Part shown: in pieces, positions 7,653 to 27,584 of the stretch | How positions within the stretch are numbered: position 1 is the first letter of the stretch | Layout of the letters: the number at the start of each line of letters is the position of its first letter | Source of the DNA: Nitrospirota bacterium | Lineage (GTDB): Bacteria; Nitrospirota; Thermodesulfovibrionia; UBA6902; JAJYJJ01 | Reading direction: 5' to 3' | Length of the DNA: 64,000 nucleotides | Assembly: GCA_021789595.1 (NCBI GenBank) | Contig: JAJYJJ010000008.1 | Location: forward strand, 25,403-89,402 | Position numbers and translations under genes: made by a program | Notes under the pieces: model-generated | Databases searched by the model: none | Told to the model about the DNA's origin: nothing | What the model saw: the letters and a program-made list of their open reading frames with translations, nothing else

Positions 7653-7727
7653 AGGCGCGTAGCTCAGGGGGAGAGCGCTACCTTGACACGGTAGAGGTCG
7701 ACGGTTCGAAACCGTCCGTGCCTACCA
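7653..7727 (+). tRNA. tRNA-Val (anticodon GAC)
   Basis: Cloverleaf folded by eye: acceptor AGGCGCG/CGTGCCT, D arm GCTC-AGGGGGA-GAGC, anticodon stem CTACC/GGTAG with loop TTGACAC, T arm GACGG-TTCGAAA-CCGTC, CCA encoded. Confidence 0.93.
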
Positions 7728-7741
7728 ATAAAATCAAGGGT

Positions 7742-8008
7742 TTACAACACATGCTGTTTCTTTCTCACAAGCGTAGTCAAATCGTAACCATTTTCATCCA
7801 AAACCTCTACAGCCTTTTTCATATGAGCCGGCGCAAGATGGGGATATCTCAGGGTCGAGGCCATTGATTCTCTTAAGGTATTGCGAAGGCAGCCTGAAAC
7901 AGCCCGGAAGGTATCAGATGAACTTTTGGGTAAATATAAGAGTATAATCCCTGCCGAAAAAACCTCAACTGAGTTTATAAAAGAACTCAGAGGCTCATTA
8001 TTTGGCAA
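7742..8008 (-). pseudogene. remnant of a tyrosine recombinase (phage-type integrase) C-terminus
   Basis: The 88-aa ORF sits directly 3' of tRNA-Val. ...LRESMASTLRYPHLAPAHMKKAVEVLD resembles the integrase C-terminal LGH..T..Y.H......AV..L box. No intact N-terminal or catalytic region is found upstream. Confidence 0.45.
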
Positions 8009-8268
8009 GGTAAAAAACTAACAAGTGAACTCCTTCCGTATGTGGAACTAAATTATTATTCTTCACAACAGTTTTGTTCCACTGTCAAAAAATACTCTAA
8101 GTGTAGAAAAATCAGAGACAGCGAAGGGCAGAAGCAATGTGTATCATCTCCTTGCCATGTTATATCTCAAAGAGGTAACTACTGAACTCCTGACAATTCT
8201 GAGGATTACTTTGAAAGGGTTTTTGTACAGAGGTGAGAGGCAAACGTCGTTTTATTTATGAGACGAAG

Positions 8269-8295
8269 TGTTTCACTGAATGTTTCAATGAAACA
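8269..8295. promoter_or_regulatory. TGTTTCA half-site plus perfect palindrome TGTTTCA-A-TGAAACA (candidate enhancer-binding-protein site)
   Basis: TGTTTCA occurs at 8269-8275 and the palindrome at 8281-8295. The same heptamer is repeated at 12479-12516. Confidence 0.35.
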
Positions 8296-8346
8296 GAATC
8301 GAGATGTTTTAACTTACATTATCCTTATAAATCAATGAAATAAAAT

Positions 8347-8362
8347 TGGTATAAATATTGCA
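8347..8362 (+). promoter_or_regulatory. candidate sigma-54 (-24/-12) promoter TGGTATAAATATTGCA
   Basis: GG and GC elements have the correct 11-nt register. It lies about 50 nt downstream of the TGTTTCA palindrome. Confidence 0.4.
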
Positions 8363-8368
8363 GAAATT

Positions 8369-8587
8369 ATGGTAATAATCAGCTTCAGTGTTTTTGTATG
8401 GATGACAGCTATTAGGGAGATACCATTTTTTAGCCTCCCAAGGCTTATAGTAGTTTATAAAGAGGAAAGGGGGGACAAAGAGGTCTTTTTTGAGTTTGCG
8501 GACAAAGAGGAGATGAAAAACTTCTGCCATGTGCTAAATAGTGCAGGGGAGAAGAGGGAAATAACATTTATCCATAAGGAGGTTTAA
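8369..8587 (+). CDS. hypothetical protein (72 aa); start uncertain
   Basis: The ORF precedes the cytochrome gene. The ATG lies only 8 nt after the -12 GC of the candidate sigma-54 promoter, so either the start or the promoter call is off. Confidence 0.35.
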   Translation: MVIISFSVFVWMTAIREIPFFSLPRLIVVYKEERGDKEVFFEFADKEEMKNFCHVLNSAGEKREITFIHKEV

Positions 8588-8589
8588 TT

Positions 8590-8960
8590 ATGTCACAAGA
8601 ACTGAGGAGTAGATTTATATTTTTAATGATCGTCACCCTATTTCTGATCATCTTTTTTGATGCCTATTTAACAAAGGCATCAGCAGCAGGCAAGGGGAAT
8701 GCTGCTGAAGGTAAGAAGGTTTACGCTGTAAGGTGTGCCATGGTGCAAGTGGAAAGGGCGATGGCCCTGTAGGAAGATCCCTGAATCCAAAGCCCGCAAA
8801 CTTTACAGATAAAGCAATGATGGCCATGCATTCTGATGAGGAGCTCTTTAAAACGATCTCCAATGGTGTAAAAGGTACTGCAATGGTGGGATTTGCAAAT
8901 TCATTGAGCGTGGCTGACCGCTGGAACCTTGTTGCATATATAAGGTCACTCTCCAGGTAA
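8590..8960 (+). pseudogene. class I c-type cytochrome, frameshifted (or carrying a sequencing error)
   Basis: Frame A (8590..8772) gives a signal/TM segment and ...AAEGKKVYAVR. Frame B opens after TAA 8712-8714 and gives EGLRCKVCHGASGKGDGP...ADRWNLVAYIRSL. The CxxCH motif exists only in frame B. Confidence 0.7.
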
Positions 8961-9165
8961 GAGTAAGATGATAACTCTTACTGGTTGGTGCAAACCTGCA
9001 AAGGGGGTCTTTTTCCTTAAAGGCAATACCTTTTTTGTGAGACCCCCCTGAAAAGGGACTTCAATTAAGTTTAAAAGTGGTGAAGGAGGTTTGAGCAGGC
9101 TCTTAGAGCCTTAGTCTCATATTTGAATCAATAAAACAAAATTAAGCCAAAGGAGGGCAATATAA

Positions 9166-10473
9166 ATGCTGAGAAAAATATTAAAAGCCACGAGTTTAGC
9201 CATCACTGTTTCAGGGTTGTTACTTTTTTTATCCTTTACAAATGCCTATGCGGTGCCAAGTTTTGCACGGCAGACGGGAATGGCTTGTTCAGTCTGCCAT
9301 ATGGTTTTTCCTGAATTGACACCATTCGGGCGACTTTTCAAGTTGGAGGGTTATACCCTGAGTAATACCGCACAGGTCAAAGAGACAGAGGGGAATGAAA
9401 TGCATGCCCTGCTCAGTAAGATCCCGCCCCTATCGGCTATGATACAAGCATCTTATACCTCTATAAAAAAGGCACAACAGGGTATTCAAAACGGGAATAT
9501 CTCCTTCCCACAACAGCTTAGCGTGTTTTATGCCGGCAAGATTACTTCTAAGATTGGGGCCTTCGCGCAGATCACTTACGATGGTGAGAGTGGCGTTTTT
9601 TCCTTAGATATGGCAGATGTTCGTTATGCCGACCATGCAACATTAAGGGGTAAAGATCTGATTTATGGCCTTACTCTAAACAACAATCCCACGATGCAAG
9701 ATGTCTGGAATAGTACCCCCATATGGGGCTTTCCCTATGCCTCATCAAGTGTTGCTCCGACCCCAGAAGCTGAAACGCAAATCTTTGCAGGCTTTGACAA
9801 AGTCGGTGGTCTTGGTGCCTATGTCTTTTGGAACAACCTGATATATGCGGAGTTGAGTGGCTACCGCACTGCACAGAGTAGTGCCACCCCACTAAAAGGA
9901 GTTGCACCATACTGGCGCATAGCTGTAGAGCCTAACTGGGGTCACCATTCCCTGTCTGTTGGCACTTATGGTATGGTAGCCGATATTTACCCCGCCCCCC
10001 CGGGCTATGTCTCTGGGGGACCAACAGACCGTTATACGGACCTCGCTCTTGACTCGCAGTACCAGTATATCAGCGGTGATAATATTTTCTCTGCCCATAC
10101 GACATGGATTCACGAGAAGCGAAACTTAAACGCCAGTTATACCCTGGGCAATGCGGAAAACTCCTTAGGCAAGCTGCGTACCTTTAAAGTGGATGGAACC
10201 TACTACTACAAACGTCGTTATGGTGCATCAGTGGGTTATTTTTCTACAACAGGAAGTTCAGATTCATTCCTCTATGCCTCCAGTAGGACATATAGTCCGG
10301 ACAGTAATGGTTTTATTATAGAATTGAATTATTTGCCATGGGAGAATACCAAACTTTCACTACAATATACAGCCTACAGCAAGTTCGACGGGGCCAAGAC
10401 GAATTATGACGGCTCTGGCAGAAACGCTTCCGACAATAACACGCTCTATGTGCTTGCTTGGCTTGTGTTTTAA
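9166..10473 (+). CDS. cyc2: Cyc2-like fused monohaem cytochrome c / outer-membrane beta-barrel porin
   Basis: Signal peptide ending AYA, then VPSFARQTGMACSVCH...FPELTPFGRLFKLEGYT. About 380 aa of alternating aromatic/Gly-rich beta-strand-like sequence follow, ending in ...LAWLVF (C-terminal Phe). Confidence 0.62.
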   Translation: MLRKILKATSLAITVSGLLLFLSFTNAYAVPSFARQTGMACSVCHMVFPELTPFGRLFKLEGYTLSNTAQVKETEGNEMHALLSKIPPLSAMIQASYTSIKKAQQGIQNGNISFPQQLSVFYAGKITSKIGAFAQITYDGESGVFSLDMADVRYADHATLRGKDLIYGLTLNNNPTMQDVWNSTPIWGFPYASSSVAPTPEAETQIFAGFDKVGGLGAYVFWNNLIYAELSGYRTAQSSATPLKGVAPYWRIAVEPNWGHHSLSVGTYGMVADIYPAPPGYVSGGPTDRYTDLALDSQYQYISGDNIFSAHTTWIHEKRNLNASYTLGNAENSLGKLRTFKVDGTYYYKRRYGASVGYFSTTGSSDSFLYASSRTYSPDSNGFIIELNYLPWENTKLSLQYTAYSKFDGAKTNYDGSGRNASDNNTLYVLAWLVF

Positions 10474-10488
10474 ACCACCCACTCTTTA

Positions 10489-10516
10489 ATGACCCTCCCC
10501 TTAAGGGGAGGGTCAT
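10489..10516. terminator. perfect 28-nt palindrome after the cyc2-like gene (terminator or REP-like hairpin)
   Basis: ATGACCCTCCCC-TTAA-GGGGAGGGTCAT with no clear T tract. The CCCTCCC/GGGAGGG core resembles the arsA insert modules. Confidence 0.4.
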
Positions 10517-10680
10517 AGAGAATATACTCCTTTACACCTTATATCATATCCCTCACCACTGCGTCATCTTAAACAACAAGTATAGATCTTCTCTCCATAC
10601 CCTCCATTTTTGTTTCCACCGCACTGTATCTTAGGGTATACTAATACAAACGCGATAAATGATGTTTAATAAATATTGTA

Positions 10681-11103
10681 ATGAAGATATTAAAATTCCC
10701 CTTCTGGTTTACAAATGGAAGGACTCAGATCCTATGGCAGACCTCCTATCATGACAGGTATCTGCCTGAAAAGACCTACACCATACCTTTGCCTTATATA
10801 GAGATGAACCATCAGGATGCGGCTAAAATCGGGATAAAAAGCGGGGATATGGTTGAAGTCTTCAATATGGATGGTAATGTTGTTACCGTGGTGTATGTCA
10901 ATGATTCGCCTCCCCCTGGTATGGTATTTGGTCTCATGTACCATCCGGAGGGATCCCTTAACCACCTGACAACCTCGTACACTGATCCCAAGACCACTAT
11001 TCCATGGTATAAGGCTTCAAGGGTCGGTATACGGAAGCTCAGTGGCCCCATTGAGGGGGTTATAAAAAACACATCATTCCTCCCAATAAATGATTGGAGA
11101 TAA
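10681..11103 (+). pseudogene. orphan C-terminal molybdopterin-dinucleotide-binding domain fragment of a Mo-bisPGD enzyme large subunit
   Basis: The 140 aa (...TNGRTQILWQTSYHD...PYIEMNHQDAAKIGIKSGDMVEVFN..G...) match the extreme C-terminal beta-barrel domain of DMSO-reductase-family subunits. There is no upstream coding continuation. Confidence 0.6.
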
Positions 11104-11156
11104 TGCGTCTCACTGTGATGAATGAAATCACAAATATTTAGCCTGCGTTACCATGT

Positions 11157-11192
11157 GGGCGGCCAGATGGCCGCCCATTATTTTCTTTTTTT
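11157..11192 (+). terminator. rho-independent terminator
   Basis: GGGCGGCC-AGAT-GGCCGCCC followed by ATTATTTTCTTTTTTT. Confidence 0.75.
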
Positions 11193-11218
11193 CTGACCTG
11201 CTGCGCTTCAGGTTATAT

Positions 11219-12457
11219 TTAAACCCCTATTGCAGGTTCAATCCCGTATCTTCTCATCTTCCTCCAGAGTGTAGAGCGGCTCAGGCCAAGCATATTTGCA
11301 GCACAGCCTTTATTGTAGGAAGATTCCCTCAGGGCATTGAGAATCCTCTGTTTTTCATCAGCCTCGGTATGGTTTATCGCCGGATGTTCCAGCGGCCCCT
11401 CCATTTCATAGTCCAGGCAGAGGTGTTCAGGCAGAATGGTATCATCATCAGCAGCACAGACAAGGGCGCTTTCTAAAACCGAGAAGAGTTCTCTGATATT
11501 CCCATACCATTGATGGGATAGGAGTAATTTCATGGCAGATGGGCTGATATTTTTCTTTCCTTGAAGGAAATTGGTAACAAGGCAGGGGATGTCCTCCTTT
11601 CTTTCCCTTAACGGTGGGACAAAGAGCCTCACCACTGATATCCTGAAGAAAAGGTCGAGCCTGAATTCCCCTGTCTTTGTCATCTCCCAGAGCGGCTTGT
11701 TGGATGATGAGATTATCCTCACATGGCTTGTCCTCTCCTTTGCAGCGCCGAGGGGTCTGTATCTTCTGGTATCTAAAAAGGTGAGGAGTTTTGATTGGCA
11801 GTTGAGGGGCAGGTTCGAGATCTCATCAAGAAAAAGGGTGCCCCTGTCAGCAAGGGCGATGTATCCCATTTTCTCGGTGCTGGCGCCTGTGAATGCGCCC
11901 TTTTCATAACCGAATAGTTCTGATTCAAAGAGTGTTTCAGGGATGGCTGAACAATTTATGTGGATGAAGGTTCCTCCACTGTGGGGGCTATGTTGATGGA
12001 TGAATCGCGCAAGTTCAGTCTTACCTGTCCCTGTTTCTCCGAGGATGGTTATCGGGGCGTCCTTATTTGCAGCTAAGACGGCCCTCTGCAAGGTCATTGA
12101 CATTGTCTTGTTCTTTGTTGCCCAGGAAAGTTCTCTTGAGGTGTCATAGCGGTCTATGCCCTTAATGAAGTTCCATATACCACCCACTACCTTACCATTC
12201 TCATCCTTGACAGGATAGTAGATAAATGTGCCTGTTATCCTGCCGCCTGGTGTCTTCAGGAACCCCGTGGTTATCGCTATATCCTGAGGAGGATAATCAC
12301 GTGGGCAGAAACCTTTGGATGTGCAGACACTGTTCAGCAAGGAGTGGCCCGTATCTTTTAATCCACAGATATCCTTTGCCTTTTCACTTGTTGAAAGGAT
12401 GTTCCCTTTTCCATCGGTCAAGAAAAAAATGGCCGACCCTAATGAAGATGTTTCCAT
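11219..12457 (-). CDS. sigma-54-dependent transcriptional activator (PAS-like sensor, AAA+ domain, Fis-type HTH)
   Basis: Walker A GETGTGKT, the GAFTGA loop (YEKGAFTGA), and C-terminal HTH (AANMLGLSRSTLWRKMRRYGI). No receiver domain. Confidence 0.9.
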   Translation of the reverse strand: METSSLGSAIFFLTDGKGNILSTSEKAKDICGLKDTGHSLLNSVCTSKGFCPRDYPPQDIAITTGFLKTPGGRITGTFIYYPVKDENGKVVGGIWNFIKGIDRYDTSRELSWATKNKTMSMTLQRAVLAANKDAPITILGETGTGKTELARFIHQHSPHSGGTFIHINCSAIPETLFESELFGYEKGAFTGASTEKMGYIALADRGTLFLDEISNLPLNCQSKLLTFLDTRRYRPLGAAKERTSHVRIISSSNKPLWEMTKTGEFRLDLFFRISVVRLFVPPLRERKEDIPCLVTNFLQGKKNISPSAMKLLLSHQWYGNIRELFSVLESALVCAADDDTILPEHLCLDYEMEGPLEHPAINHTEADEKQRILNALRESSYNKGCAANMLGLSRSTLWRKMRRYGIEPAIGV

Positions 12458-12478
12458 GGTACCTCCTGTTCAGCAGTT

Positions 12479-12516
12479 TGTTTCATTATGTTTCATTATA
12501 TGTTTCACACGAAACA
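12479..12516. promoter_or_regulatory. three TGTTTCA repeats, the last forming TGTTTC-ACAC-GAAACA (candidate UAS)
   Basis: TGTTTCA occurs at 12479, 12489 and 12501, with GAAACA at 12511-12516. It lies between the activator gene start and the sigma-54 promoter at 12567. Confidence 0.4.
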
Positions 12517-12566
12517 AAGTCAAGAGAAAATGGATTAAATATCCTTAGTTATCAAGCCAGAGAAAT

Positions 12567-12582
12567 TGGCATGAGTATTGCT
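12567..12582 (+). promoter_or_regulatory. sigma-54 (-24/-12) promoter TGGCATGAGTATTGCT
   Basis: Near-consensus TGGCAC-N5-TTGCW with exact spacing. It is divergent from the activator gene and upstream of the cytochrome/Mo-family operon. Confidence 0.6.
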
Positions 12583-12626
12583 TGATAGTTATGTCTTAAA
12601 AAGTCTTCTTTGCAGATATTTATGCA

Positions 12627-12983
12627 GTGGATTCTGCTTACATCGGCAGGCAGGAATCAGATTTTATGGATATAACATCAGGCGTAAAAATATATGGACT
12701 CTGTCTGGAGAGATTAAAGCACCAGATAAGTATTGCCAGATCAAGGATTGAAAAGGGACATGAGGAGGATACGAGGGAAATTGTCCTTGAATGCTATAAC
12801 ACGGGCAATGTAGATGACATCATAGATATACTGGAACTTTATGACATAGGTGATGACAAGAGAATAGATACACTAAAAGACAAACTTGATGAGCTGGCAT
12901 ACACTGCCTCTCTGCTTGTGAGGGAAAAGGTGAAGTTTGGCTTCTCTGAAGAAGGCGAGTTGTGTCTTTATCTGGTGAGATGA
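12627..12983 (+). CDS. hypothetical acidic cytoplasmic protein (118 aa)
   Basis: Its stop TGA (12981-12983) overlaps the ATG (12980) of the cytochrome gene in an ATGA coupling, which supports a real gene. The start codon is uncertain. Confidence 0.5.
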   Translation: MDSAYIGRQESDFMDITSGVKIYGLCLERLKHQISIARSRIEKGHEEDTREIVLECYNTGNVDDIIDILELYDIGDDKRIDTLKDKLDELAYTASLLVREKVKFGFSEEGELCLYLVR

Positions 12984-13456
12984 AGAGATTTGTGGTCATA
13001 GTATCTATAGTTATCTTTGTCTCTGGCTGCGGAGAGACGGTAAGGCAGCCCATAAAATTCAACCACAAGAAGCATGTGGATATGGGAATTGGGTGCGATA
13101 CCTGCCACATCTATGTGAAAGAGCAGCCCTTTGCAGGGCTTCCGAAGATAGAGATATGTCTCGGCTGTCATGAGGCACCGATTACAAAGAGTGCAGAAGA
13201 GGAGAAGATAAGAGATTTCAAGAAGAGGGACATCGAGTTGAGATGGACTAAACTCACCAATCTTCCAGACTATGTCTATTTCTCACATAGAAGGCATGTG
13301 GGCATTGCAAAACTGGACTGCAAGGGCTGTCATGGGGATATCGCTGAAATGCCAGTGCCTCCTGAAAGGGCATTGGTGAGCCTTAAGATGGGGGATTGTA
13401 TTGATTGCCATAGGAAGAAAAAGGCAAAGACCGATTGTATATACTGCCACAGGTGA
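12980..13456 (+). CDS. pentahaem c-type cytochrome lipoprotein (ActA/Qrc-type electron-transfer subunit)
   Basis: Five CxxCH motifs (CDTCH, CLGCH, CKGCH, CIDCH, CIYCH). Lipobox VSGC follows MKRFVVIVSIVIF. The start was moved to ATG 12980 (the track starts at GTG 12962). Confidence 0.8.
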   Translation: MKRFVVIVSIVIFVSGCGETVRQPIKFNHKKHVDMGIGCDTCHIYVKEQPFAGLPKIEICLGCHEAPITKSAEEEKIRDFKKRDIELRWTKLTNLPDYVYFSHRRHVGIAKLDCKGCHGDIAEMPVPPERALVSLKMGDCIDCHRKKKAKTDCIYCHR

Positions 13457-13465
13457 GGGGATTTA

Positions 13466-15646
13466 ATGGCTCTAACGAGAAGGGACTTTATTAAGGTTGT
13501 TGGGATAGGGGCATTCGCAGCCACTACAGGCTGCACAAAGCTCTCTGAGTTTATGGATGAAGGAGCGGTTTCTGTACCGCCAAATGGCGTCGAGAAATGG
13601 ATACCCTCTGTATGTGGACAGTGCTCTGGAGGCTGCGGAATAATTGCGAGGGTTATTGATGGGAGGGTGGTAAAGATAGAGGGCAATCCCCTTTCCCCGA
13701 TAAATAGAGGGACCCTGTGTGCGAGAGGACAGGCAGGTCTTCAGGTGTTGTATGACCCGGACAGGATAAGGGCTCCTCTGAGGAGGGTCGGGGACAGGGG
13801 CTCTGACAGGTGGAGGGAGATAGGCTGGGATGAGGCTATAGGGGAGGTTGCGGAGAGGCTTAACGGGATAAGGAGAAAGGGCATCCCCCATAAGGTGGCC
13901 ATGATCTCCGGTTCTGAGAGGGGATCGATGGATCTCCTGTTGTGCCGGTTCATGGAAGCCCTTGGTTCTCCCAATTATTTTCTCATGCCAGATGACAACG
14001 ATGATATACAGATAGATGCGATCTCTGTTATGCAGGGCATAAAAGGCAGGCCCCTCTTCGATATATCCCGTGCAAGATACATCCTGTCCTTTGGTTCTCC
14101 CCTGATCGAGACCTTTTCATCACCCGTCCAGACCATGAGGATGTACGGGGAGTTCAGGGGCGGGAATGGAAAGATGAGGGGCAGGCTGGTCCATATCTCA
14201 CCCCGTCTTTCCGTAACAGGCATAAAGGCGGACAGGTGGGTACCCTTAAGACCGGGCACAGAGGGCGTCTTTGCCCTGGGGATCGCCCATGTAATCATAA
14301 AGGAGTCGCTCTATGATAGAGACTTCATTTCCAGCCATACATCAGGATTTGATGGATTCAGGGAAATCCTCCTCAAGGAGTATACACCATCTTATGTCTC
14401 GAAGATAACATCCCTTGCCGAAGACAGGACAATAGAGATAGCAAGAGAATTTGCCTCATTCAGGCCCTCCCTGGCGATAGCAAACAGGTGTAGGTTATAT
14501 GACCAGATGGCTATTCATTCATTAAACGCCCTTATAGGCAGCATAGGTAAAAGGGGAGGGATAATCTTCCAGAGCGCTCCGGGGCCTTATGCCCTTCCGC
14601 TATCGGAAAGGGCAATAGCGATGACCCCCATTTCCGGTTCACCCTATACGCTTTCTGAGGCGATAAGAAATGGGTCTCCCTACAGCCTGGAAGCCCTTTT
14701 GATTTATAACTGTAATCCCCTCTTCTCCCTGCCCGATATGCATGAGGCATCCAGGGGAATTCCCTTTATTGTGAGTTTCTCTCCCTTCATGAATGAGACA
14801 GCAAGGACGGCAGACCTCATCCTCCCTAACAACACCTATCTCGAAAACTGGGGAGACGTCCTGAGCCATACTGCCGAAGGGACTGCCATCGGCATAAGAC
14901 AGCCTGTCCTGAAGCCGATATACAGGACCATGCAGACCGGTGATGTGATATTAAGGATTGCGAGGAATATGGGCGGGGACATAGAAAAAAGCATGCCCTG
15001 GGGAAGTTTTAAGGATGCCCTTTTTTATTCTTTAAGGCAGCTTCGTAAAAGAAAGGGAGAGGTATTCGGCATTTCAAAGGGATTAAGGGGGGAAGAGGAA
15101 TTTTTGGAGGCCATGCTGGCAGGCGGCGGTTATCGGGAGCCATCGGATTACCAGAGGCCTGGGGAATTTGATTTCCATCAAGTTACCTCACCACAGGCCG
15201 TGAGAGATTATAAGAAGGGCCTATCCGGGGGAGATGAAAAAGACTATCCCCTTTATCTGAATATACACAGGCTTTCGACACATTCGGGCATCACCGATTA
15301 TAACCAGCCCTATCTGAAGGAATCCCTCACACCGGAGATCCCGGAGGCCTGGGATTCATGGGTGGAGATAAATCCGGAGACAGGAAAGAGACGGGGCATT
15401 AGCACAGGGGATATGGTTGTTGTTGAATCTCAGGCGGGGAGGATAAGGCTCAGGGCGAGGTTATATCAGGGGATAATGCCTGATGTTGTGAGCATCCCCT
15501 TTGGACTTGGAGAGGCAGGCCTGGGCAGATGGAATAAAAACATAGGGGTCAATCCGGAGAAGATACTGGTGAAGGATATAGATCTGCCTTCAGGCAATCT
15601 AATCAGAAATTCCACAAGGGTGAGAATATACAGGGCAGATGGCTAA
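13466..15646 (+). CDS. molybdopterin-oxidoreductase-family large subunit with Tat signal (Psr/Qrc/ActB1-like)
   Basis: Twin-arginine signal TRRDFIKVVGIGAFAA, FS0 motif CGQCSGGCG...x27..C, and a C-terminal MopB_CT-like domain (GISTGDMVVVES..G). Confidence 0.85.
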   Translation: MALTRRDFIKVVGIGAFAATTGCTKLSEFMDEGAVSVPPNGVEKWIPSVCGQCSGGCGIIARVIDGRVVKIEGNPLSPINRGTLCARGQAGLQVLYDPDRIRAPLRRVGDRGSDRWREIGWDEAIGEVAERLNGIRRKGIPHKVAMISGSERGSMDLLLCRFMEALGSPNYFLMPDDNDDIQIDAISVMQGIKGRPLFDISRARYILSFGSPLIETFSSPVQTMRMYGEFRGGNGKMRGRLVHISPRLSVTGIKADRWVPLRPGTEGVFALGIAHVIIKESLYDRDFISSHTSGFDGFREILLKEYTPSYVSKITSLAEDRTIEIAREFASFRPSLAIANRCRLYDQMAIHSLNALIGSIGKRGGIIFQSAPGPYALPLSERAIAMTPISGSPYTLSEAIRNGSPYSLEALLIYNCNPLFSLPDMHEASRGIPFIVSFSPFMNETARTADLILPNNTYLENWGDVLSHTAEGTAIGIRQPVLKPIYRTMQTGDVILRIARNMGGDIEKSMPWGSFKDALFYSLRQLRKRKGEVFGISKGLRGEEEFLEAMLAGGGYREPSDYQRPGEFDFHQVTSPQAVRDYKKGLSGGDEKDYPLYLNIHRLSTHSGITDYNQPYLKESLTPEIPEAWDSWVEINPETGKRRGISTGDMVVVESQAGRIRLRARLYQGIMPDVVSIPFGLGEAGLGRWNKNIGVNPEKILVKDIDLPSGNLIRNSTRVRIYRADG

Positions 15647-16322
15647 ATGGGTAATGGTCATAGACCTCGATAAATGCACTGCCTGCCAGGCCTGTGTTGT
15701 AGCCTGCCAGGTGGAAAACAACATTCCCATTGCAGGTCCTGATGAGACAGAAAGGCAGAGGATTATTCGGTGGATGGAGATAATACCTTTTATCTATGGA
15801 GAATATCCTGATGTGAGGATGAGACTGCTGCCGAGACCATGTATGCAATGTGACAACCCGCCATGCACAAAGGTTTGTCCTGTGAGGGCGACCATGCTGG
15901 GACCTGAGGGGATAGTGGCACAGATATACCCGAGGTGCATAGGCTGTAGATACTGCACCTCTGCATGCCCCTACACCGTGAAATACTTTAACTGGCACAC
16001 ACCATCATGGCCCGAGGAGATGAGAAATTCCCTCAACCCCGACGTCTCTGTGAGGCCGGCAGGGGTTGTTGAGAAATGCACCTTCTGCATCCATAGGCTC
16101 CAGAAGGCGAGGGAAAAGGCTGCTGCTGAAGGAAGGCAACTCAGGGAGGGTGATTACATCCCTGCCTGCGTCCAGACATGCCCGAGCTGTGCCATGTATT
16201 TCGGCGATAGCGAGAACCCGAAGAGCATTGTCTCTGACCTCATAAAGAGTCCGAGGGCATTCAGGCTCCTTGAGGAAATAGGCACAGAGCCAAAGGTTTA
16301 TTATCTTTCAGAGGGACAATAG
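15639..16322 (+). CDS. 4x[4Fe-4S] ferredoxin-type subunit (PsrB/QrcC/ActB2-like)
   Basis: Four Cys clusters (CTACQACVVAC, CMQCDNPPCTKVC, CIGCRYCTSAC, CTFCIHR...CVQTC). It overlaps the upstream gene by 8 nt. Confidence 0.9.
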   Translation: MAKWVMVIDLDKCTACQACVVACQVENNIPIAGPDETERQRIIRWMEIIPFIYGEYPDVRMRLLPRPCMQCDNPPCTKVCPVRATMLGPEGIVAQIYPRCIGCRYCTSACPYTVKYFNWHTPSWPEEMRNSLNPDVSVRPAGVVEKCTFCIHRLQKAREKAAAEGRQLREGDYIPACVQTCPSCAMYFGDSENPKSIVSDLIKSPRAFRLLEEIGTEPKVYYLSEGQ

Positions 16323-16323
16323 G

Positions 16324-18069
16324 ATGGAGAGGGAAGATATACTGTTCAAGCCCATTGATAGGCCAGGCAGGAAATTTTACATAGTGGCAGGCATCATGAG
16401 TATGGTTGTGATCTGGGCATTTTATGCCTACATAACAGAGCTCAGGAACGGGCTCGGTGTCACGGGTCTAAACAGGCCTGTGTTCTGGGGGTTCTATATA
16501 ACAAATTTTGTATTCTTTATAGGCATAAGCCATGCAGGAACCCTCATCTCCGCAGTTCTGAGGATAACAAACGCAGAATGGAGGAAGTCCATAACAAGGT
16601 CTGCTGAAGTCATAACAGTCCTGGTTCTGGGCATCGGGGTCATGAACATATTGATGGACCTCGGCAGGCCTGACAGGGTTCTGAATATCATAAAGTATGG
16701 AAGATTCCAGTCTCCTCTTGTCTGGGACCTCATCAGCATTACAACCTATTTAACTGCAAGCATAATATACCTCTACCTCCCCCTTATCCCTGATATTGCT
16801 TTGTTGAGGGATAGGGTAAAAGATGAACCGAGGAAGTGGTTTTATAATATTCTTTCTATTGGCTGGAAAGGGACAGAGGAACAACAAAGGATACTCAACG
16901 GGGCCATCGCTATTATGGCCATTCTTGTTATTCCTATAGCTGTCTCTGTCCATACAGTGGTTTCCTATGTTTTTGCGATGACCATACAACCCATGTGGCA
17001 CAGTGCAATATTCGGGCCTTACTTTGTTGTTGGGGCGATATTCTCTGGCATTGCTGCCATAATAATAATCATGGCAATAATCAGAAAGGTTTACCATCTT
17101 GAAGATTATTTGAGGCCAGTCCATTTTAAGAATTTGGGTATATTGTTATTTGTTATGGCCTGTCTATGGCTATATTTCACACTCAATGAGTATCTGACCA
17201 CCTTCTATGCTGCAGAGCCTGTTCAGATGAAGGTGTTTTACTCAAAGTTTACTGGAAGATATGCACACTTGTTCTGGCTCATGGTTATAACCTGTTTTGT
17301 TATCCCTGCCATACTCCTGGTGAATAAAAGGACGAGAACTATCTCAGGGATGGTTGCGGCATCTATTTCGATAACAATAGGTATGTGGCTTGAGAGATTT
17401 ATAATCATAGTACCCAGCCTTGCAAATCCGAGGCTTCCCTATGAAAGGGGTATATATTTTCCCACATGGGTTGAATGGTCATTGATGGCAGGGTGCTTTG
17501 CCCTATTTGCACTGATGTATATGGTATTCACAAAACTATTCCCCATCGTCTCTGTATGGGAGGTGAGAGAGGCGAGGGAGACGGGATTGAAGGAGATCAG
17601 GGAAAGGGTGAAGGAGTACCTGCCGGGTATGGAGGTACTTGCGAAGAATATTATGAGCAAGGAGGTTATTGCTGTCACACCTGAAACTACTGTGGAGGAG
17701 ATAGGCAGGCTACTCGCCTCCCATCGCATAAGCGGGGTGCCCGTGATAGATGCAGACAAAAGGGTGATAGGGGTGGTCTCGGAGTCGGATGTCATATTCA
17801 GGGAGATAAGGCATGAGTTCACTCTTGTGGAAAGACTGGGTAATATTATCCTGCCAGAACTGCGGAGGGAGGGTGAGAGGTCTGGTAATACCGCAGGTGA
17901 GATAATGACCTCTCCTGCTATTACTGCAGAGGAAGAGACTTCCCTTACTGAACTCATGGAGATAATCAGGGAGAAGAAGATAAAGAGGATAGTCATAGTG
18001 GATAAGGTCGGACGGCTTGCAGGGATAGTCTCGAGGATTGATATAGTAAAGGCGATTGAAAGGATATAA
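16324..18069 (+). CDS. NrfD/PsrC-family integral membrane subunit fused to a C-terminal CBS-pair domain
   Basis: The first ~420 aa are polytopic NrfD-like (GLGVTGLNRPVFWGFYITNFVFFIGISHAGTLIS). From about residue 444 (nt 17653) there are two CBS motifs (SKEVIAVTPETTVEEI...GVPVID and EIMTSPAITA...KRIVIVD..GRLAGIVSRIDIVKA). Confidence 0.85.
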   Translation: MEREDILFKPIDRPGRKFYIVAGIMSMVVIWAFYAYITELRNGLGVTGLNRPVFWGFYITNFVFFIGISHAGTLISAVLRITNAEWRKSITRSAEVITVLVLGIGVMNILMDLGRPDRVLNIIKYGRFQSPLVWDLISITTYLTASIIYLYLPLIPDIALLRDRVKDEPRKWFYNILSIGWKGTEEQQRILNGAIAIMAILVIPIAVSVHTVVSYVFAMTIQPMWHSAIFGPYFVVGAIFSGIAAIIIIMAIIRKVYHLEDYLRPVHFKNLGILLFVMACLWLYFTLNEYLTTFYAAEPVQMKVFYSKFTGRYAHLFWLMVITCFVIPAILLVNKRTRTISGMVAASISITIGMWLERFIIIVPSLANPRLPYERGIYFPTWVEWSLMAGCFALFALMYMVFTKLFPIVSVWEVREARETGLKEIRERVKEYLPGMEVLAKNIMSKEVIAVTPETTVEEIGRLLASHRISGVPVIDADKRVIGVVSESDVIFREIRHEFTLVERLGNIILPELRREGERSGNTAGEIMTSPAITAEEETSLTELMEIIREKKIKRIVIVDKVGRLAGIVSRIDIVKAIERI

Positions 18070-18346
18070 CATAGTGAGTGAAAAATTGGCGGAAGACAGA
18101 ATTGTAAAGTATATACAGATTTCGGGAATCGCACTTTTTTATGCCTTTGTTGCAGGGGTTGCATTATTCCTCATCAATGGCATAAAGAATGGGTGGGTAT
18201 ACCATGTTTCTTCTGCTCCCTATGAACTTTCCTTCCCCTTTGCAATAATAATATCCGCTATTATTCTAATGGTATTTTCGGTATTGACCCTTGTGGTATC
18301 TATGGTCTTCTGGGGTTTTTTAAGGGATGATATAGTGAAAGGATGA
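18056..18346 (+). CDS. small two-TM membrane protein (96 aa)
   Basis: Overlaps the end of the NrfD-CBS gene by 14 nt and has two hydrophobic spans. No family recognised. Confidence 0.45.
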   Translation: MKGYNIVSEKLAEDRIVKYIQISGIALFYAFVAGVALFLINGIKNGWVYHVSSAPYELSFPFAIIISAIILMVFSVLTLVVSMVFWGFLRDDIVKG

Positions 18347-19021: not shown

Positions 19022-19381
19022 CTAAGACTGAACAGAGGACAAGGTTATATCCTTACTCACGATGGTAATCCTCTGAAGCCAGAAGATTCCCTTTAAAGGG
19101 GACAATACCCCTTTAATTGTACTTTCCACAAGTAATCGCGTAAAGTCCTTTAGCAATGGGATCTCTCCTTTTTCTGTATAAATACGGAGTTCCGCCTCGT
19201 CTATATAAACTGTTATGTCCCTTGAATCATAGCCCAGCGACAACACAATACCTCTCAAAACATTGCCCATATAGTTCTGGATAAATTCATTAAGCGGCAC
19301 GATAGAATCATTAACGAGCAGACTTGTCTTCAACTGTGTAATATCCTCCCTCTGCACAGGGTTTACACAACACCTTTCCAT
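19022..19381 (-). CDS. hypothetical protein; last gene of the Mo-enzyme operon, start uncertain
   Basis: The tracked ORF overlaps the FmdE-like gene by 71 nt, so the real start is probably internal. No family recognised. Confidence 0.4.
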   Translation of the reverse strand: MERCCVNPVQREDITQLKTSLLVNDSIVPLNEFIQNYMGNVLRGIVLSLGYDSRDITVYIDEAELRIYTEKGEIPLLKDFTRLLVESTIKGVLSPLKGIFWLQRITIVSKDITLSSVQS

Positions 19382-19922
19382 CTCTATGCACCTCCCTCAT
19401 GTCCTGAACATACTCGCCACACACATCGCACTTAACCCTCATCAGCGGCCTACCCGGCATATCCTCAGGCCTTAATTGAACATTCACATCCATCATTTCA
19501 AAGAGTTCTTCATCGGTCATTACCCTGTATGCCTCAAGCTGTGCCTTATATTTGTCCTTCTCAGGAAAATATTCCCTTGCCTTTTCCCTTGCCTCTTCCT
19601 TTGCAATGACCCTAACGGCCTTACCTGTTTTTAGATTTACAAATGTGGCTGCCATTTTGCCGTAGTCCATAAACTTCATTGTCCTGCGTCCAAGGCTGCA
19701 GCCAGTAACAGATTGGACTGCATCCGTTGCACATCTGTCCATCTCAACAAAAACGATCAGATTTTTTTTGTCCTTGCCTTTAGGGTCTTCGATACTAATC
19801 TTTCTCAGTCCAAGCATGGACATCTTTACTCCAAGCATCTGACCCGGGCAGAGATGTCCGTGAATTTTTACTGATTCATCTAAAAGCGATTCGAAATCCA
19901 TTGCATTTATACTATAAACCAT
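19311..19922 (-). CDS. FmdE/FwdE-domain protein with C-terminal zinc ribbon
   Basis: HGHLCPGQMLG and DRCATDAVQSVTGCSLG motifs, plus a C-terminal CDVCGE...CKPC. Confidence 0.8.
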   Translation of the reverse strand: MVYSINAMDFESLLDESVKIHGHLCPGQMLGVKMSMLGLRKISIEDPKGKDKKNLIVFVEMDRCATDAVQSVTGCSLGRRTMKFMDYGKMAATFVNLKTGKAVRVIAKEEAREKAREYFPEKDKYKAQLEAYRVMTDEELFEMMDVNVQLRPEDMPGRPLMRVKCDVCGEYVQDMREVHRDGKVLCKPCAEGGYYTVEDKSAR

Positions 19923-19924
19923 GC

Positions 19925-20566
19925 TTATGTAAATTTATTGTTAACTAAATTCCTTGTCACCTGTGCCAGAGCCTTATAAAATTGCGAGTCCGTTGCTTTT
20001 TCCATATCCATTGTGAACTGTGGAACCCACTTTATAAGATGCTCTTCCAGAAATCTCTTAGCAATATCCATATAATAAAGCCTTTTTTCGGGTTCATTAT
20101 CCATTTTTTGAAACAAGACTGCCATAAAATTCAGTTCTGCTCCAATATGGTCAGACATTATATCAGGATTATTAATTGTTAACCCAATTTTAGTATAAAT
20201 ATTTTTGACTTCATCATATGCATCCTGCATCATCAGTCTTTTAGGTGATGTATATACAGATTCCCACGGCGGACAGGGAAGCTTATATGGTCCGATAAAA
20301 AGCCTTGTGTACTCCCATAACAAATCTTCAAGCTCCTGCCCTGAATTAAGGTCTATCACATCAATAGCATCCTTTAAGCCTGACAAGAGATCAGACACAT
20401 CCAGAGGAAGCAATGTCTTCCAGTTTTCAATGGCCTCTCTTGTAGGTTTGCATAAATACATACTGCTTAAAAGACTGCAAGCTTTTTGCCATTCACTACC
20501 AATAATCATTGTGGCATCCCGCATCGTATTTATACCCCTCATGATCTGTCGTTTATGCAAGGGCAC
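19925..20566 (-). CDS. TorD/DmsD-family redox-enzyme maturation chaperone
   Basis: 213 aa. YTRLFIGPYKLPCPPWESVY and HIGAELNFMA are typical of TorD-like chaperones, and the gene follows the FeS subunit gene. Confidence 0.8.
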   Translation of the reverse strand: MPLHKRQIMRGINTMRDATMIIGSEWQKACSLLSSMYLCKPTREAIENWKTLLPLDVSDLLSGLKDAIDVIDLNSGQELEDLLWEYTRLFIGPYKLPCPPWESVYTSPKRLMMQDAYDEVKNIYTKIGLTINNPDIMSDHIGAELNFMAVLFQKMDNEPEKRLYYMDIAKRFLEEHLIKWVPQFTMDMEKATDSQFYKALAQVTRNLVNNKFT

Positions 20567-20620
20567 AACATATGTTGTACCCTTGCAATCTTACGCAGTG
20601 AAATTTTTATCTCTGTATCC

Positions 20621-21211
20621 TTATTTCTTTATGTTCCTTGCCTCCACAAACCTTATTGAGGGTCTTGTTAATTTTGGGTCTGCAAGGTCTGGCAGCTTTT
20701 CAACAATCTTACCCTTAAATACAGGGTCTGCAAAGGCATTGCCTGCTTCAACATCAGGGAGTCTTCCATTGGAAAGGGCATAGCCCATACAGGTCCTCAC
20801 ACATGCAGGAGGAAGCCCTGCCTTTAGCCTGTGGATGCAGAAGTTACACTTATCTACTTTCTTCTTCTTCTCGTCAAACTGAGGAGCGCCATAAGGACAG
20901 GCGGCCATACAGCGTTTGCAGCCAATGCATTTCTTCTGATCATGCAGTACAACACCGAACTCCGGCTCCTTAGTGTATGCTCCTACAGGACATGCCTTCA
21001 TGCATGCAGGCTCCTCGCAGTGATTGCAGGAGATGGAGATATATCTCACCACAGGATTGGGGTATTTGCCTTCCTCTTTAATAATCACCCTTCTCCGTCT
21101 AATTCCAACAGGCAGGTCAAATTCCTGTTTGCACCCGGCCTCGCATGCCCTGCACGCAATACAGTTGTCCTCATCATAAAGCCACGCCATCTGTTTTGGA
21201 TTCTTTGCCAT
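20621..21211 (-). CDS. 4x[4Fe-4S] electron-transfer subunit of the Mo enzyme
   Basis: CIACRACEAGC, CNHCEEPACMKAC, CIGCKRCMAAC and CNFCIHR...CVRTC. Confidence 0.9.
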   Translation of the reverse strand: MAKNPKQMAWLYDEDNCIACRACEAGCKQEFDLPVGIRRRRVIIKEEGKYPNPVVRYISISCNHCEEPACMKACPVGAYTKEPEFGVVLHDQKKCIGCKRCMAACPYGAPQFDEKKKKVDKCNFCIHRLKAGLPPACVRTCMGYALSNGRLPDVEAGNAFADPVFKGKIVEKLPDLADPKLTRPSIRFVEARNIKK

Positions 21212-21223
21212 TTATATCACCTC

Positions 21224-23575: not shown

Positions 23576-23582
23576 CCCTCCT

Positions 23583-23936
23583 TTACTGTGCGTATAATAC
23601 CTTTGCGCCTTTCACACCACCACTGTGGCATCCGGCACAAAGCTGCGGGTCAACCTGCCTCCTCAATGCAGCAGCAGAGCCTTCTCTTAAATCAACGGAT
23701 TGATGACAGTCGGCACAATTCTTTGGTGTTCCAAGCTTTGATTCAAGGTGCACCCTGTGGTATGTCTTGAACTTCTTATTCAGTGTTACTCTCGTTTTGA
23801 TGTTGGCATGGCATGCAAGACACTGCTTATTGCTAAGTTTACCTGCATTTTTATGCAGGTAAATAAGGTTCTTTTCTGCAGCAACTGCTACAGAAACAAA
23901 CATAAGCACAAAGCATACAACCAAAAACCTTTTCAT
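23583..23936 (-). CDS. secreted trihaem c-type cytochrome
   Basis: Signal peptide plus CLACH, CADCH and CAGCH. First gene of the operon; SD GGAGGAGG. Confidence 0.8.
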   Translation of the reverse strand: MKRFLVVCFVLMFVSVAVAAEKNLIYLHKNAGKLSNKQCLACHANIKTRVTLNKKFKTYHRVHLESKLGTPKNCADCHQSVDLREGSAAALRRQVDPQLCAGCHSGGVKGAKVLYAQ

Positions 23937-24076
23937 AAACCTCCTCCTTTCATGAAATGATTTTCATTCAGAGAGACATCTAAGATTTTATTTTTCCCAC
24001 CTCCTTCTTCCCATCAGATTAACTCTAAAATTCCTTATTGCATTACCTCAAATAAAATTCTTTTACCGACTTATTT

Positions 24077-24092
24077 ATCAACTTTCATGCCA
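24077..24092 (-). promoter_or_regulatory. weak sigma-54-like promoter TGGCATGAAAGTTGAT
   Basis: Spacing is correct and the -24 element is good, but the -12 element reads GA instead of GC. It lies about 140 nt upstream of the cytochrome ATG. Confidence 0.3.
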
Positions 24093-24225
24093 CATGTAAC
24101 TCCTTGAATTTAAAAGATTTGTGTTTTCAAGAGTGTTACGAAAAGGAAACACATCTTGGATAAAAATCCCCCTTTAGCTTTTATTTTCAACAAAAAATAC
24201 ATTTTTTCCTCCGAAAATATTCAAA

Positions 24226-24243
24226 TGTTACAATTGTGTAACA
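24226..24243. promoter_or_regulatory. inverted repeat TGTTAC-N6-GTAACA (candidate response-regulator site)
   Basis: Perfect 6-bp arms. A further TGTTAC occurs at 24133-24138. It lies about 140 nt upstream of the candidate -24/-12 element. Confidence 0.3.
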
Positions 24244-24263
24244 ATGTTTTCATCCATTATCTT

Positions 24264-26336: not shown

Positions 26337-26667
26337 CCTGTAAGGTAATAGGTTTCTTTTTCAATGGCTCTATCCCCAATGCCCTGCATAGCTCTTCATA
26401 CGATGGATATTCCCCTGTCTTCATCACCTCTCCGCTGACCATTGTAATGGGCAGTACCTTTTTACCGTTTTCATGAAGCAGTTCGGCGATCGTTTTGTTT
26501 GCCATAAATGCCCTTGGCTGCTGGGCAAGGTTATATCTCTCTACTTCCACCCCCTGCTTTTTTAATGCCAGCACCGCATCGTTCATCTTTACCAGAACAG
26601 GGTCAATGCTTGGCCCGCAAAGCCCCGATGAACAGCACATCGCCGGGTCGTAGATTTCTATTTTCAT
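26326..26667 (-). CDS. arsD: arsenic metallochaperone ArsD
   Basis: MKIEIYDPAMCCSSGLCGP shows the Cys12-Cys13-Cys18 pattern. It overlaps the arsA start by 11 nt. Confidence 0.9.
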   Translation of the reverse strand: MKIEIYDPAMCCSSGLCGPSIDPVLVKMNDAVLALKKQGVEVERYNLAQQPRAFMANKTIAELLHENGKKVLPITMVSGEVMKTGEYPSYEELCRALGIEPLKKKPITLQVGG

Positions 26668-27582: not shown

Positions 27583-27584
27583 GG

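Follow-up and report, generated by a model that had tools for sequence, protein, structure and literature searches.

A Cyc2-family cytochrome-porin gene of probable foreign origin and a Qrc/ACIII-like operon under apparently shared sigma-54 control in a Thermodesulfovibrionia-like Nitrospirota

What does a Cyc2-type gene do in a bacterium whose other genes look like those of an anaerobe? Cyc2 is the most used genetic marker of microbial iron oxidation, and most of its homologues are found in organisms never shown to oxidise iron, so that the question bears on how "iron oxidation potential" is read from metagenomes. The 64-kb stretch of Nitrospirota contig JAJYJJ010000008.1 analysed here (the window, to which all coordinates refer) offers a clean case: an intact, apparently transferred Cyc2-type gene, hereafter the cyc2-like gene, in an anaerobe-like relative of Thermodesulfovibrionia from iron-rich mine drainage. 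We propose that this gene was acquired horizontally, that its product forms the outer-membrane terminus of an electron conduit, and that sigma-54 switches it on together with an inner-membrane complex resembling Qrc and alternative complex III (ACIII). We regard this joint reading as probable, if well short of secure. Four lines of in silico observation lead to it: family membership, a codon anomaly, a shared regulatory architecture and conserved synteny.

Is the product of the cyc2-like gene a Cyc2? Keffer et al. characterise the family by a signal peptide, a single CXXCH haem-binding motif preceded by a unique AXPXFAR[Q/K][T/Y] motif and followed by PXL, a length of at least 365 residues and a 16-strand porin (PMC8406198). 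The window protein has a signal peptide, one CXXCH (C41-H45), the AXPXFAR[Q/K][T/Y] motif, 435 residues, a predicted 16-strand barrel and homology to known Cyc2 proteins. Its cassette reads A-V-P-S-F-A-R-Q-T-GMA-CSVCH-MVF-P-E-L, and a single CXXCH is likewise found in 120/120 of its closest homologues. Three residues separate the AxPxFAR[QK][TY] motif from C41, exactly as in the Cyc2 proteins of Zetaproteobacteria (Zeta Cyc2). The gap from CXXCH to PxL is also three residues, in the window protein and in 111/120 members of its subfamily, as against four in 95/107 Zeta sequences of Cluster 1; the published position of PXL is four residues past CXXCH, and Keffer et al. report motif differences between clusters (PMC8406198). 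All 34 columns that are invariant across the 120 homologues, P31, R35, Q36, C41, C44, H45 and L51 among them, are kept.

The ends of the protein agree with this assignment. The cyc2-like ATG lies 8 nt downstream of a Shine-Dalgarno sequence, AGGAGG, and the product begins MLRKILKATSLAITVSGLLLFLSFTNAYA and continues past the predicted cleavage point as VPSFARQTGMACSVCHMVFPELTPFGRLFKLEGYT; the signal peptide has a basic n-region, an AXA site and, in the AlphaFold model, a hydrophobic helix spanning residues 2-22. The predicted mature N-terminus, VPSFARQ, parallels the LPSFARQ that Edman degradation gave for Acidithiobacillus ferrooxidans Cyc2 (PMC3084935), which supports both cleavage after AYA and the Cyc2 identity. 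At the other end the sequence closes with LAWLVF, and the C-terminal residue is Phe in 106/120 homologues. The signal peptide, N-terminal strings and C-terminal Phe from which an earlier sequence-only reading had recognised a fused cytochrome-porin are thus all present in the open reading frame (ORF), and motif, profile comparison and predicted fold bear out the identification itself. As a separate observation, a Logan contig from run X1 (depth 26) joins position 9282 to 10231 and so drops 948 nt within cyc2; the shorter side of the join is 24 nt only, so an artefact of the assembly graph or a piece of a related gene probably explains it.

Standard family libraries do not recognise the protein. 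A search of Pfam and NCBIfam returned nothing genuine (a single spurious match to a CoV methyltransferase, E 0.03), and a sequence search of the PDB returned no true relative. Homologues are nevertheless abundant and are labelled hypothetical in every source: 7,966/8,000 scored candidates of the first search had E <= 1e-3, and among 1.84 billion representatives clustered at 50% identity there were 3,506 matches at E <= 1e-3, 1,497 at 1e-10 and 489 at 1e-30. To obtain Cluster 1 references, the published mass-spectrometry peptides of Cyc2 PV-1 were joined and used as a database query; among the Zetaproteobacteria Cyc2 proteins so recovered was that of M. ferrinatatus CP-8; the best local identity was 54-58%, with no 100% match, and these homologues stood in as the Cluster 1 set. 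The PV-1 peptide QTGAACLSCHFQTFPALNAFGR aligns to QTGMACSVCHMVFPELTPFGR of the window protein. In phmmer, residues 3-145 of the window protein align to Zeta Cyc2 (E ~1e-13), and with hhalign a profile of its 120 closest relatives matches that of 107 Zeta Cyc2 proteins with 99.6% probability (E 1e-23), colinearly over 329 columns. When the haem cassette is cut out, the porins alone still align colinearly, albeit weakly (73%, E 3e-5). A strong full-length match beside a weak porin match fits the published pattern of the family, in which the cytochrome domain is conserved and the porin divergent (PMC8406198).

The predicted structure leads to the same place. AlphaFold, run on the 120-sequence alignment, gave a model with mean pLDDT 88.1 and pTM 0.83 in which short helices at the haem site are followed by 16 long strands (residues 89-434), the barrel mostly at pLDDT above 90; a barrel was what the sequence-only reading had expected. 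The top 50 Foldseek matches in the PDB are 16-strand porins only (OmpT/OmpU, OmpF/OmpC, Omp-Pst1, DcaP and OprO 4RJW), the last of which was the template for the Cyc2 PV-1 model (PMC8406198). No non-haem porin family emerged as the closest relative. We conclude that motif, profile and predicted fold show the window protein, in silico, to be a divergent new member of the Cyc2 family, and we infer that it binds its haem covalently and resides in the outer membrane. Where in the family it belongs could be narrowed in part. Its ~18% identity to Cluster 1, its different PxL spacing and a tree distance of ~2.4, compared with ~0.6 inside its own subfamily, place it clearly outside Cluster 1 as judged from these alignments; the placement among published clusters that had been suggested went that far.

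How is the cyc2-like gene controlled? All the features of a sigma-54 regulon are present in silico: -24/-12 elements, an AAA+ activator and upstream palindromes. One -24/-12 element (P1) precedes a class-I cytochrome c gene and cyc2, and another (P2) precedes orf118 and the Qrc/ACIII-like operon; the two are identical at 12/16 positions, P2 being a strong sigma-54 promoter and P1 a weaker element. Upstream of each lies a palindrome of the form TGTTTC-N3/4-GAAACA, a putative upstream activating sequence (UAS1 and UAS2). These are the only two matches to this pattern in 64 kb, where 100 shuffles gave an expectation of 0.00; each begins exactly 66 bp upstream of its -24/-12 element, and each is flanked by extra TGTTTCA half-sites. 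P1 becomes credible because of the UAS at identical spacing and its 12/16 identity to P2. We also note that the heptamer TGTTTCA is enriched across the window as a whole (29 matches against 10.7 +/- 3.2 expected), 6-7 of the matches lying within the two regulatory regions. Between the two transcription units, on the opposite strand, is the gene for the activator, which has no receiver domain and whose N-terminal 113 residues are unannotated; homologous sigma-54 activators lie near cyc2-like genes at seven other genome loci and at L081. Since the two promoters share a palindrome unique in the window at the same 66-bp distance, one enhancer-binding activator, that encoded between them, probably switches on cytochrome c-cyc2 and the Qrc-like operon together. 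Sigma-54 control had been anticipated by the sequence-only reading, and it now has a basis, the shared palindrome 66 bp before P1 and P2, that the reading did not foresee.

The second of these transcription units encodes a four-subunit complex resembling those that interact with the quinone pool, as ACIII does (PMC5566968, PMC9040806). Its best NCBIfam matches are QrcA/B/C/D and DsrO/P, with bit scores against cut-offs of 107/180, 328/440, 311/400 and 131/350, all below threshold. Are the same parts found together elsewhere? In five metagenome-assembled genomes (MAGs) of the Fibrobacterota-Chlorobiota-Bacteroidota (FCB) group they form a cluster transcribed in one direction: three Bacteroidota (L027, L058, L068), one member of Kryptoniota (L038) and one of Ignavibacteriaceae (L057). 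The gene order there is sigma-54 activator, PAS histidine kinase, receiver-only regulator, cyc2-like gene, cytochrome c, pentahaem cytochrome, Mo-like subunit, FeS subunit, NrfD, a small ORF, a tetrahaem cytochrome and a CarboxypepD_reg-like protein (3406-16866 in L027); the L058 contig ends after the pentahaem gene. In the other four, the Qrc-like subunits are 26-60% identical to those of the window, the FeS subunit (58-60%) and NrfD (55-59%) being close throughout. A sigma-54-type sequence, GGCACG-N4-TTG(C/G/A), stands ~25-45 bp 5' of the first operon gene in 4/5 of the FCB loci. Two smaller observations belong here. The NrfD-like subunit of the window carries a C-terminal CBS pair, a fusion missing from the FCB orthologues (~450 aa), and orf118 was considered as a counterpart of the FCB receiver gene c15 and rejected on comparison.

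Is the cyc2-like gene native to this genome? Its Arg codons are CGN in 10/14 cases (CGT5, CGC2, CGA2, CGG1), whereas the pooled CGN share in the 33 other window ORFs of at least 200 aa is 0.17 and the single-gene maximum 0.33 (binomial P = 1e-5); Ile is encoded by ATC/ATT in 14/21 cases and by ATA in 7/21, against a host ATA share of 0.51. Scored by per-codon likelihood under the window's own codon usage, the whole gene is the lowest of all window ORFs of at least 85 aa, with z = -4.1 relative to the other long ORFs and -7.3 relative to 2,000 host-style simulations of the same protein. The anomaly spans the whole gene, since 10/11 sliding 70-codon windows score below the 5th percentile of the host, and it affects Arg, Thr, Ala, Ser and Ile together, with CGN, GCC and AGT among the preferred codons. 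By contrast, the adjacent cytochrome c, the Mo-enzyme fragment downstream, the sigma-54 activator and the pentahaem gene all have host-like codons. The Arg and Ile preferences in which the sequence-only reading saw a foreign gene therefore hold up, and quantifying codon adaptation strengthened them.

The distribution of relatives is in keeping with a mobile history. The closest Cyc2-like proteins are 43-57% identical and come from more than ten phyla, in MAGs assigned to Gemmatimonadota, Bacteroidota, Ignavibacteriota, Gamma- and Betaproteobacteria, Desulfomonilia, Binatia, Acidobacteriota, Zixibacteria and Methylomirabilia. Among the GTDB representatives that were scanned, a set that excludes the window's own genome, the sole homologue from the host's order, Thermodesulfovibrionales (L007), ranks sixteenth. 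A bootstrapped neighbour-joining tree is star-like and gives the window protein no supported sister from which a donor lineage could be read. Atypical codons together with a patchy distribution, in line with a Cyc2 phylogeny dominated by transfer (PMC12442345), make horizontal acquisition of the coding sequence, as the sequence-only reading had suggested, a well-supported interpretation of the sequence data, with no donor that can be named. As cyc2 is the only foreign-codon ORF and sits behind a native-looking control region, it probably either replaced a resident gene or was newly added to a pre-existing host cluster.

We propose the following path. After cleavage at AYA/VPSFARQ, an N-terminal domain of ~55 residues would bind one c-type haem through C41, C44 and H45; fused to the 16-strand porin, it would trade electrons one at a time with a dissolved redox species outside the cell, for which Fe2+, plentiful in mine drainage, is the likeliest candidate. 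The haem would pass its electrons to a small periplasmic carrier, and the carrier would link it to the Qrc/ACIII-like inner-membrane complex, completing a conduit from the outer membrane to menaquinone; P1 would drive cytochrome c-cyc2 and the same activator would drive the Qrc/ACIII-like operon from P2. The route, its direction and its operation despite a frameshift in the neighbouring cytochrome gene (see below) are the parts of the proposal that we infer. Fe(II) is the default substrate because the three characterised family members, A. ferrooxidans Cyc2, Cyt572 and Cyc2 PV-1, oxidise it (PMC8406198) and because the habitat is iron-rich; from family membership, Fe(II) oxidation by the window protein is plausible. 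The haem potential of Cyc2 PV-1 is +208 mV (PMC8406198). The path matches the model of Barco 2015 and Kato 2015, summarised in PMC5566968, in which neutrophilic iron oxidisers use Cyc2, a periplasmic cytochrome and ACIII as their conduit. More tentatively, the Cyc2-like protein, a small carrier (class-I cytochrome c, c4 or a Rieske protein with a twin-arginine translocation (TAT) signal) and the Qrc/ACIII-like complex may make up a single sigma-54 module, a dedicated outer-membrane-to-menaquinone conduit of anaerobes built on a distinct, unusually conserved Cyc2 subfamily and different from a classical aerobic iron oxidase, an idea that we rate as possible and somewhat doubtful. On that idea the module is apparently one operon in Bacteroidota, Ignavibacteriota and Kryptoniota, and split yet co-regulated in the Nitrospirota host.

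A number of points weigh against the joint reading. The 64-kb window contains no terminal oxidase or nitrate reductase that could take Fe(II)-derived electrons, and its gene content is anaerobe-like (CooS, PhsA-like, Qrc/DsrP-like). Electron transfer from Fe(II) to menaquinone is energetically uphill. P1 taken by itself is a chance-level match; the PxL gap differs from that of Zeta Cyc2; and the subfamily occurs mostly in lineages not known as iron oxidisers. The partner cytochrome is frameshifted in the sole deep assembly, and together with a Mo-enzyme remnant downstream this speaks of decay at the cyc2 locus. Three small metatranscriptome contig sets from the same study contain nothing over 8500-18100, a result that is uninformative. 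Finally, Keffer et al. rate function outside Cluster 1 as uncertain (PMC8406198).

Table 1. Features of the cyc2-like locus and of the Qrc/ACIII-like operon, in window coordinates
Feature	Position	Strand	Basis or remark
tRNA-Val(GAC)	7653-7727	+	Context only; 1.4 kb from the cyc2-like gene
UAS1 palindrome TGTTTCAATGAAACA, putative enhancer-binding-protein site	8281-8295	+	Extra half-site at 8269
P1, sigma-54-type -24/-12 element TGGTATAAATATTGCA, 5' of cytochrome c and cyc2	8347-8362	+	2 mismatches
Class-I monohaem cytochrome c, frameshifted	8590-8960	+	ORFs; read-through Pfam Cytochrom_C, 9e-13
cyc2-like gene, 435 aa, monohaem cytochrome c fused to 16-strand outer-membrane porin, intact	9166-10473	+	ORF, homologue alignment, hhalign, AlphaFold
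Signal peptide, aa 1-29, MLRKILK...TNAYA, predicted cleavage between A-Y-A and V	9166-9252	+	Read from sequence
Haem cassette A29-V-P-S-F-A-R-Q-T37, C41-S-V-C-H45, P49-E-L51	9250-9318	+	Motif definition of Keffer 2021
16-strand beta-barrel, aa 89-434, C-terminal aromatic beta-signal ...LAWLVF	9430-10467	+	DSSP strands in AlphaFold model
140-aa ORF, C-terminal Molydop_binding domain of arsenite-oxidase-like large subunit	10681-11103	+	NCBIfam arsenite_ox_L 692-806/806, E 4e-39
Intrinsic-terminator-like hairpin, end of cytochrome c-cyc2 unit	11155-11178	+	10 bp stem, 8 GC, T-run
Sigma-54-dependent activator, AAA+ Sigma54_activat + HTH_8	11219-12457	-	Pfam 5.5e-59
UAS2 palindrome TGTTTCACACGAAACA	12501-12516	+	Extra half-sites at 12479 and 12489
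P2, sigma-54 promoter TGGCATGAGTATTGCT, 5' of orf118 and Qrc/ACIII-like operon	12567-12582	+	1 mismatch to consensus
Qrc/ACIII-like quinone-interacting complex, four subunits	12962-18069	+	NCBIfam, Pfam
Pentahaem cytochrome subunit	12962-13456	+	
Mo-like subunit	13466-15646	+	
4Fe-4S subunit	15639-16322	+	
NrfD-like membrane subunit fused to CBS pair	16324-18069	+	

Could electrons instead run outward through the same parts? ACIII acts as a quinol:cytochrome c oxidoreductase, and in such a scheme the Qrc/ACIII-like complex would oxidise menaquinol and send electrons through the periplasmic cytochrome and the Cyc2-like haem to a dissolved acceptor such as soluble Fe(III) or humic quinones. The anaerobe-like host with no terminal oxidase seen in the 64-kb window, the energetic cost of moving electrons from Fe(II) to menaquinone and the occurrence of Cyc2 homologues in Fe(III)-reducing taxa, for example Ignavibacteriaceae (PMC6344600), keep this direction viable. 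The syntenic operons of Ignavibacteriota and Bacteroidota lie in its favour, as does the mine drainage source, Fe(III) being soluble at its low pH. Set against these, every family member tested biochemically oxidises Fe(II), the haem potentials of the tested members are high (the PV-1 value given above), and the complex's subunits are best matched by Qrc; as Qrc is a menaquinone reductase, this points to inward flow. We judge export to be unlikely while giving it serious weight.

Or does the locus serve no working pathway at all, cyc2 having been transferred into a degenerating accessory region? Here the immediate neighbours matter. A class-I cytochrome c is a conserved partner of cyc2-like genes as far as gene neighbourhoods tell, with a homologue within a few genes at 41/69 loci, or 39/71 under stricter clustering; the partner takes several forms across loci, being one of two monohaem types or, directly downstream at 15 proteobacterial-type loci, a dihaem c4, and in the two closest relatives on long contigs a TAT-signal Rieske protein occupies its position. 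In the window, the adjacent soluble cytochrome that the sequence-only reading had pointed to does exist, except that its frame is broken between 8715 and 8727, two to three codons 5' of the CKVCH haem site: one frame encodes the signal peptide and GKKVY, and a second, which has a stop at 8712, encodes CKVCHGASGKGDG... from 8727 on. Between the conserved aromatic residue and the first Cys, 7/7 intact homologues have three residues where the window has 2 nt, which points to the loss of 7 (or 1 or 4) nt. Over 7698-11300 the window sequence, frameshift included, is matched without a difference by an independent Logan contig (17.5 kb, ~25x) from the deepest run.

Downstream, the neighbouring Mo-enzyme gene of the sequence-only reading proves to be just the C-terminal domain of an arsenite-oxidase-like enzyme. 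The 208 bp 5' of this ORF have stops in all three frames and nothing recognisable, and its codons are host-like; it is a probable gene remnant. The closest cyc2 relatives have a TAT-Rieske gene, possibly AioB-like, in this place (L081 9342-9971, L083 9379-9966). The broken partner, this lone AioA-like fragment directly downstream, ~860 bp past the tRNA without recognisable genes and the lack of transcript contigs over the region in the three small, uninformative sets would all fit decay. Yet cyc2 itself is full length, with a strong ribosome-binding site and 34/34 family-invariant residues; P1 and its UAS are intact and mirror P2; the Qrc-like operon, too, is undamaged; periplasmic cytochromes encoded elsewhere in the genome could stand in for the broken one; and the frameshift could be a strain variant, its site being covered in the deepest run only and not in other samples. 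A decaying remnant seems to us a somewhat less likely account than outward flow. The spacer between cytochrome c and cyc2 showed no unusual RNA structure (z -1.0), and an Rfam scan of the window found tRNA only.

The joint reading holds that cyc2 was transferred. Might its codons instead reflect gene-specific selection, for instance on translation speed or on co-translational export of an abundant outer-membrane protein? Neither GC content (0.46) nor tetranucleotide composition (z 1.5) of the gene is an outlier, its regulatory region looks native, and neither an integrase nor an att repeat nor a nameable donor came to light. The sequence-only reading had placed the gene in a tRNA-linked accessory region, and this part finds no support: the tRNA-Val is 1.4 kb away, its last 25 nt occur once only in the window with three mismatches allowed, and the window shows neither an integrase nor a repeated tRNA 3' end that would mark a tRNA-integrated island around cyc2. 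An 88-aa ORF at 7742-8008 (-) was considered as an integrase remnant and rejected, having no Pfam or PHROGs hit and no att-like repeat; its C-terminus (...LRYPHLAPAHMKKAVEVL / ...STLRYPHLAPAHMKKAVEVL) looks tyrosine-recombinase-like by eye, for which library searches give no support. On the other side, the highly expressed HU gene keeps AGR in 4/6 of its Arg codons, which counts against expression level as the cause; the co-transcribed cytochrome has host codons; many amino acids are shifted at once, nearly throughout the gene; the host's own order offers the window protein no close relative; and Cyc2 phylogenies are dominated by transfer (PMC12442345). We find selection in place of transfer improbable.

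A role in Mn(II) oxidation, or in taking electrons from an arsenite-oxidase-type enzyme, seems very improbable: Cyc2 is a candidate Mn(II) oxidase in the Nitrospirota 'Ca. Manganitrophus' (PMC9040806), and the AioA-like remnant, the TAT-Rieske protein that takes its place in the closest relatives and an arsenic gene cluster nearby hint at the second role, but for 'Ca. Manganitrophus' the Mn role is a hypothesis too, the AioA-like piece is incomplete and has host codons, and few of the 80 genome loci have a Rieske partner.

Who, then, is the host? The window sequence was detected in mine drainage metagenomes. The housekeeping marker Dxs has named relatives only in MAGs of Nitrospirae, Thermodesulfovibrionia and Thermodesulfovibrionales (63-69% identity), and the window also encodes an anaerobic CO dehydrogenase (CooS), a PhsA-like Mo enzyme, SoxB, a thiosulfate transporter, ArsA and Acr3. 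From these genes the host looks like an uncultivated, Thermodesulfovibrionia-like Nitrospirota with an anaerobe-like gene profile. Beyond the subjects treated above, the window holds an arsenic/Mo-enzyme cluster (19311-28637, -) with an FmdE-like zinc-finger protein, a TorD/DmsD-like chaperone, a PhsA/ArrA-like molybdopterin oxidoreductase (783 aa), a tandem ArsA ATPase, a tandem-USP protein and the arsenite efflux pump Acr3. It also holds two paralogous three-gene sensor cassettes (29516-34070 and 44999-49471, -), in each of which a histidine kinase and a sigma-54 response regulator accompany a PhnD-like periplasmic binding protein; the PhnD-like protein of the first cassette has a double domain, and the second cassette adjoins SoxB (49543-51204), a TsuA-like transporter (43562-44788) and CooS (41237-43144).

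What this locus adds is the apparent co-regulation of cyc2 and a quinone complex through a shared sigma-54 enhancer site, with the same parts in one operon in other phyla. If the link is true, it names the inner-membrane partner of a large Cyc2 subfamily (~490 clusters at 50% identity) and provides a concrete system in which to ask whether Cyc2-like proteins import or export electrons under anoxia. If the conduit idea holds, the module would let anaerobes draw electrons from dissolved Fe(II), or pass them on to dissolved acceptors, with no need of oxygen.

How does the locus compare with known systems? Its host and gene context are slightly unusual yet consistent with published models. Like the Cluster 1 Cyc2 of Mariprofundus ferrooxydans PV-1 and other Zetaproteobacteria and Gallionellaceae (PMC8406198), the window protein has a signal peptide and only one CXXCH, with PxFARQT three residues ahead of its first Cys and with PxL and then FGR past the haem site, and a 16-strand porin in a chain of ~400-450 residues whose cytochrome domain is by far the better conserved part. 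It differs from them in sharing only ~18% identity over aligned columns, in a PxL gap of three residues and not four, in a C-terminus ...WLVF where Zeta proteins have ...EALM/L, and in belonging to a subfamily whose porin is unusually conserved (~50% identity across phyla); the Cluster 1 hosts are microaerophilic iron oxidisers, whereas the window host is an anaerobe-like Nitrospirota. The A. ferrooxidans Cyc2 of Cluster 2 is likewise an outer-membrane monohaem cytochrome, with mature LPSFARQ beside the predicted VPSFARQ (PMC3084935), and its rus operon likewise has a periplasmic c-type cytochrome adjacent, the downstream dihaem c4 of 15 relatives recalling cyc2-cyc1. Unlike that system, the window cyc2 has no rusticyanin or aa3 oxidase genes nearby, and its partner is a frameshifted monohaem class-I cytochrome. 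The Cyt572/Cyt579 pair of Leptospirillum (Cluster 3) also belongs to Nitrospirota of mine drainage and also joins an outer-membrane Cyc2-type protein to a small periplasmic cytochrome; the best NCBIfam match of the window cytochrome is indeed "cytochrome 579" (3.8e-12), at a sub-threshold 46 vs 280 bits, and the window host differs in being Thermodesulfovibrionia-like.

The nearest published model as a whole is that of Cyc2, Cyc1 and ACIII (Barco 2015 and Kato 2015, in the account given by PMC5566968), with which the locus shares an outer-membrane Cyc2, a periplasmic cytochrome and an inner-membrane multihaem/Mo-like/FeS/NrfD-like complex; in the window and in five FCB MAGs, by contrast with that model, the components are clustered and apparently controlled together by sigma-54, and the window complex departs from canonical ACIII in being closer to the Qrc/DsrOP models, below their cut-offs, and in having no second NrfD-like subunit. 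General 16-strand porins (OmpF/OmpC, V. cholerae OmpT/OmpU, OprO/OprP) share the barrel (Foldseek E 1e-9 to 4e-7, TM 0.43-0.60) and lack the haem domain, and no porin Pfam family matches the window protein. MtoAB, PioAB and MtrAB, finally, also transfer electrons across the outer membrane, and they do so with a 26-strand barrel and a separate decahaem cytochrome, where the window protein would use one polypeptide, one haem and 16 strands.

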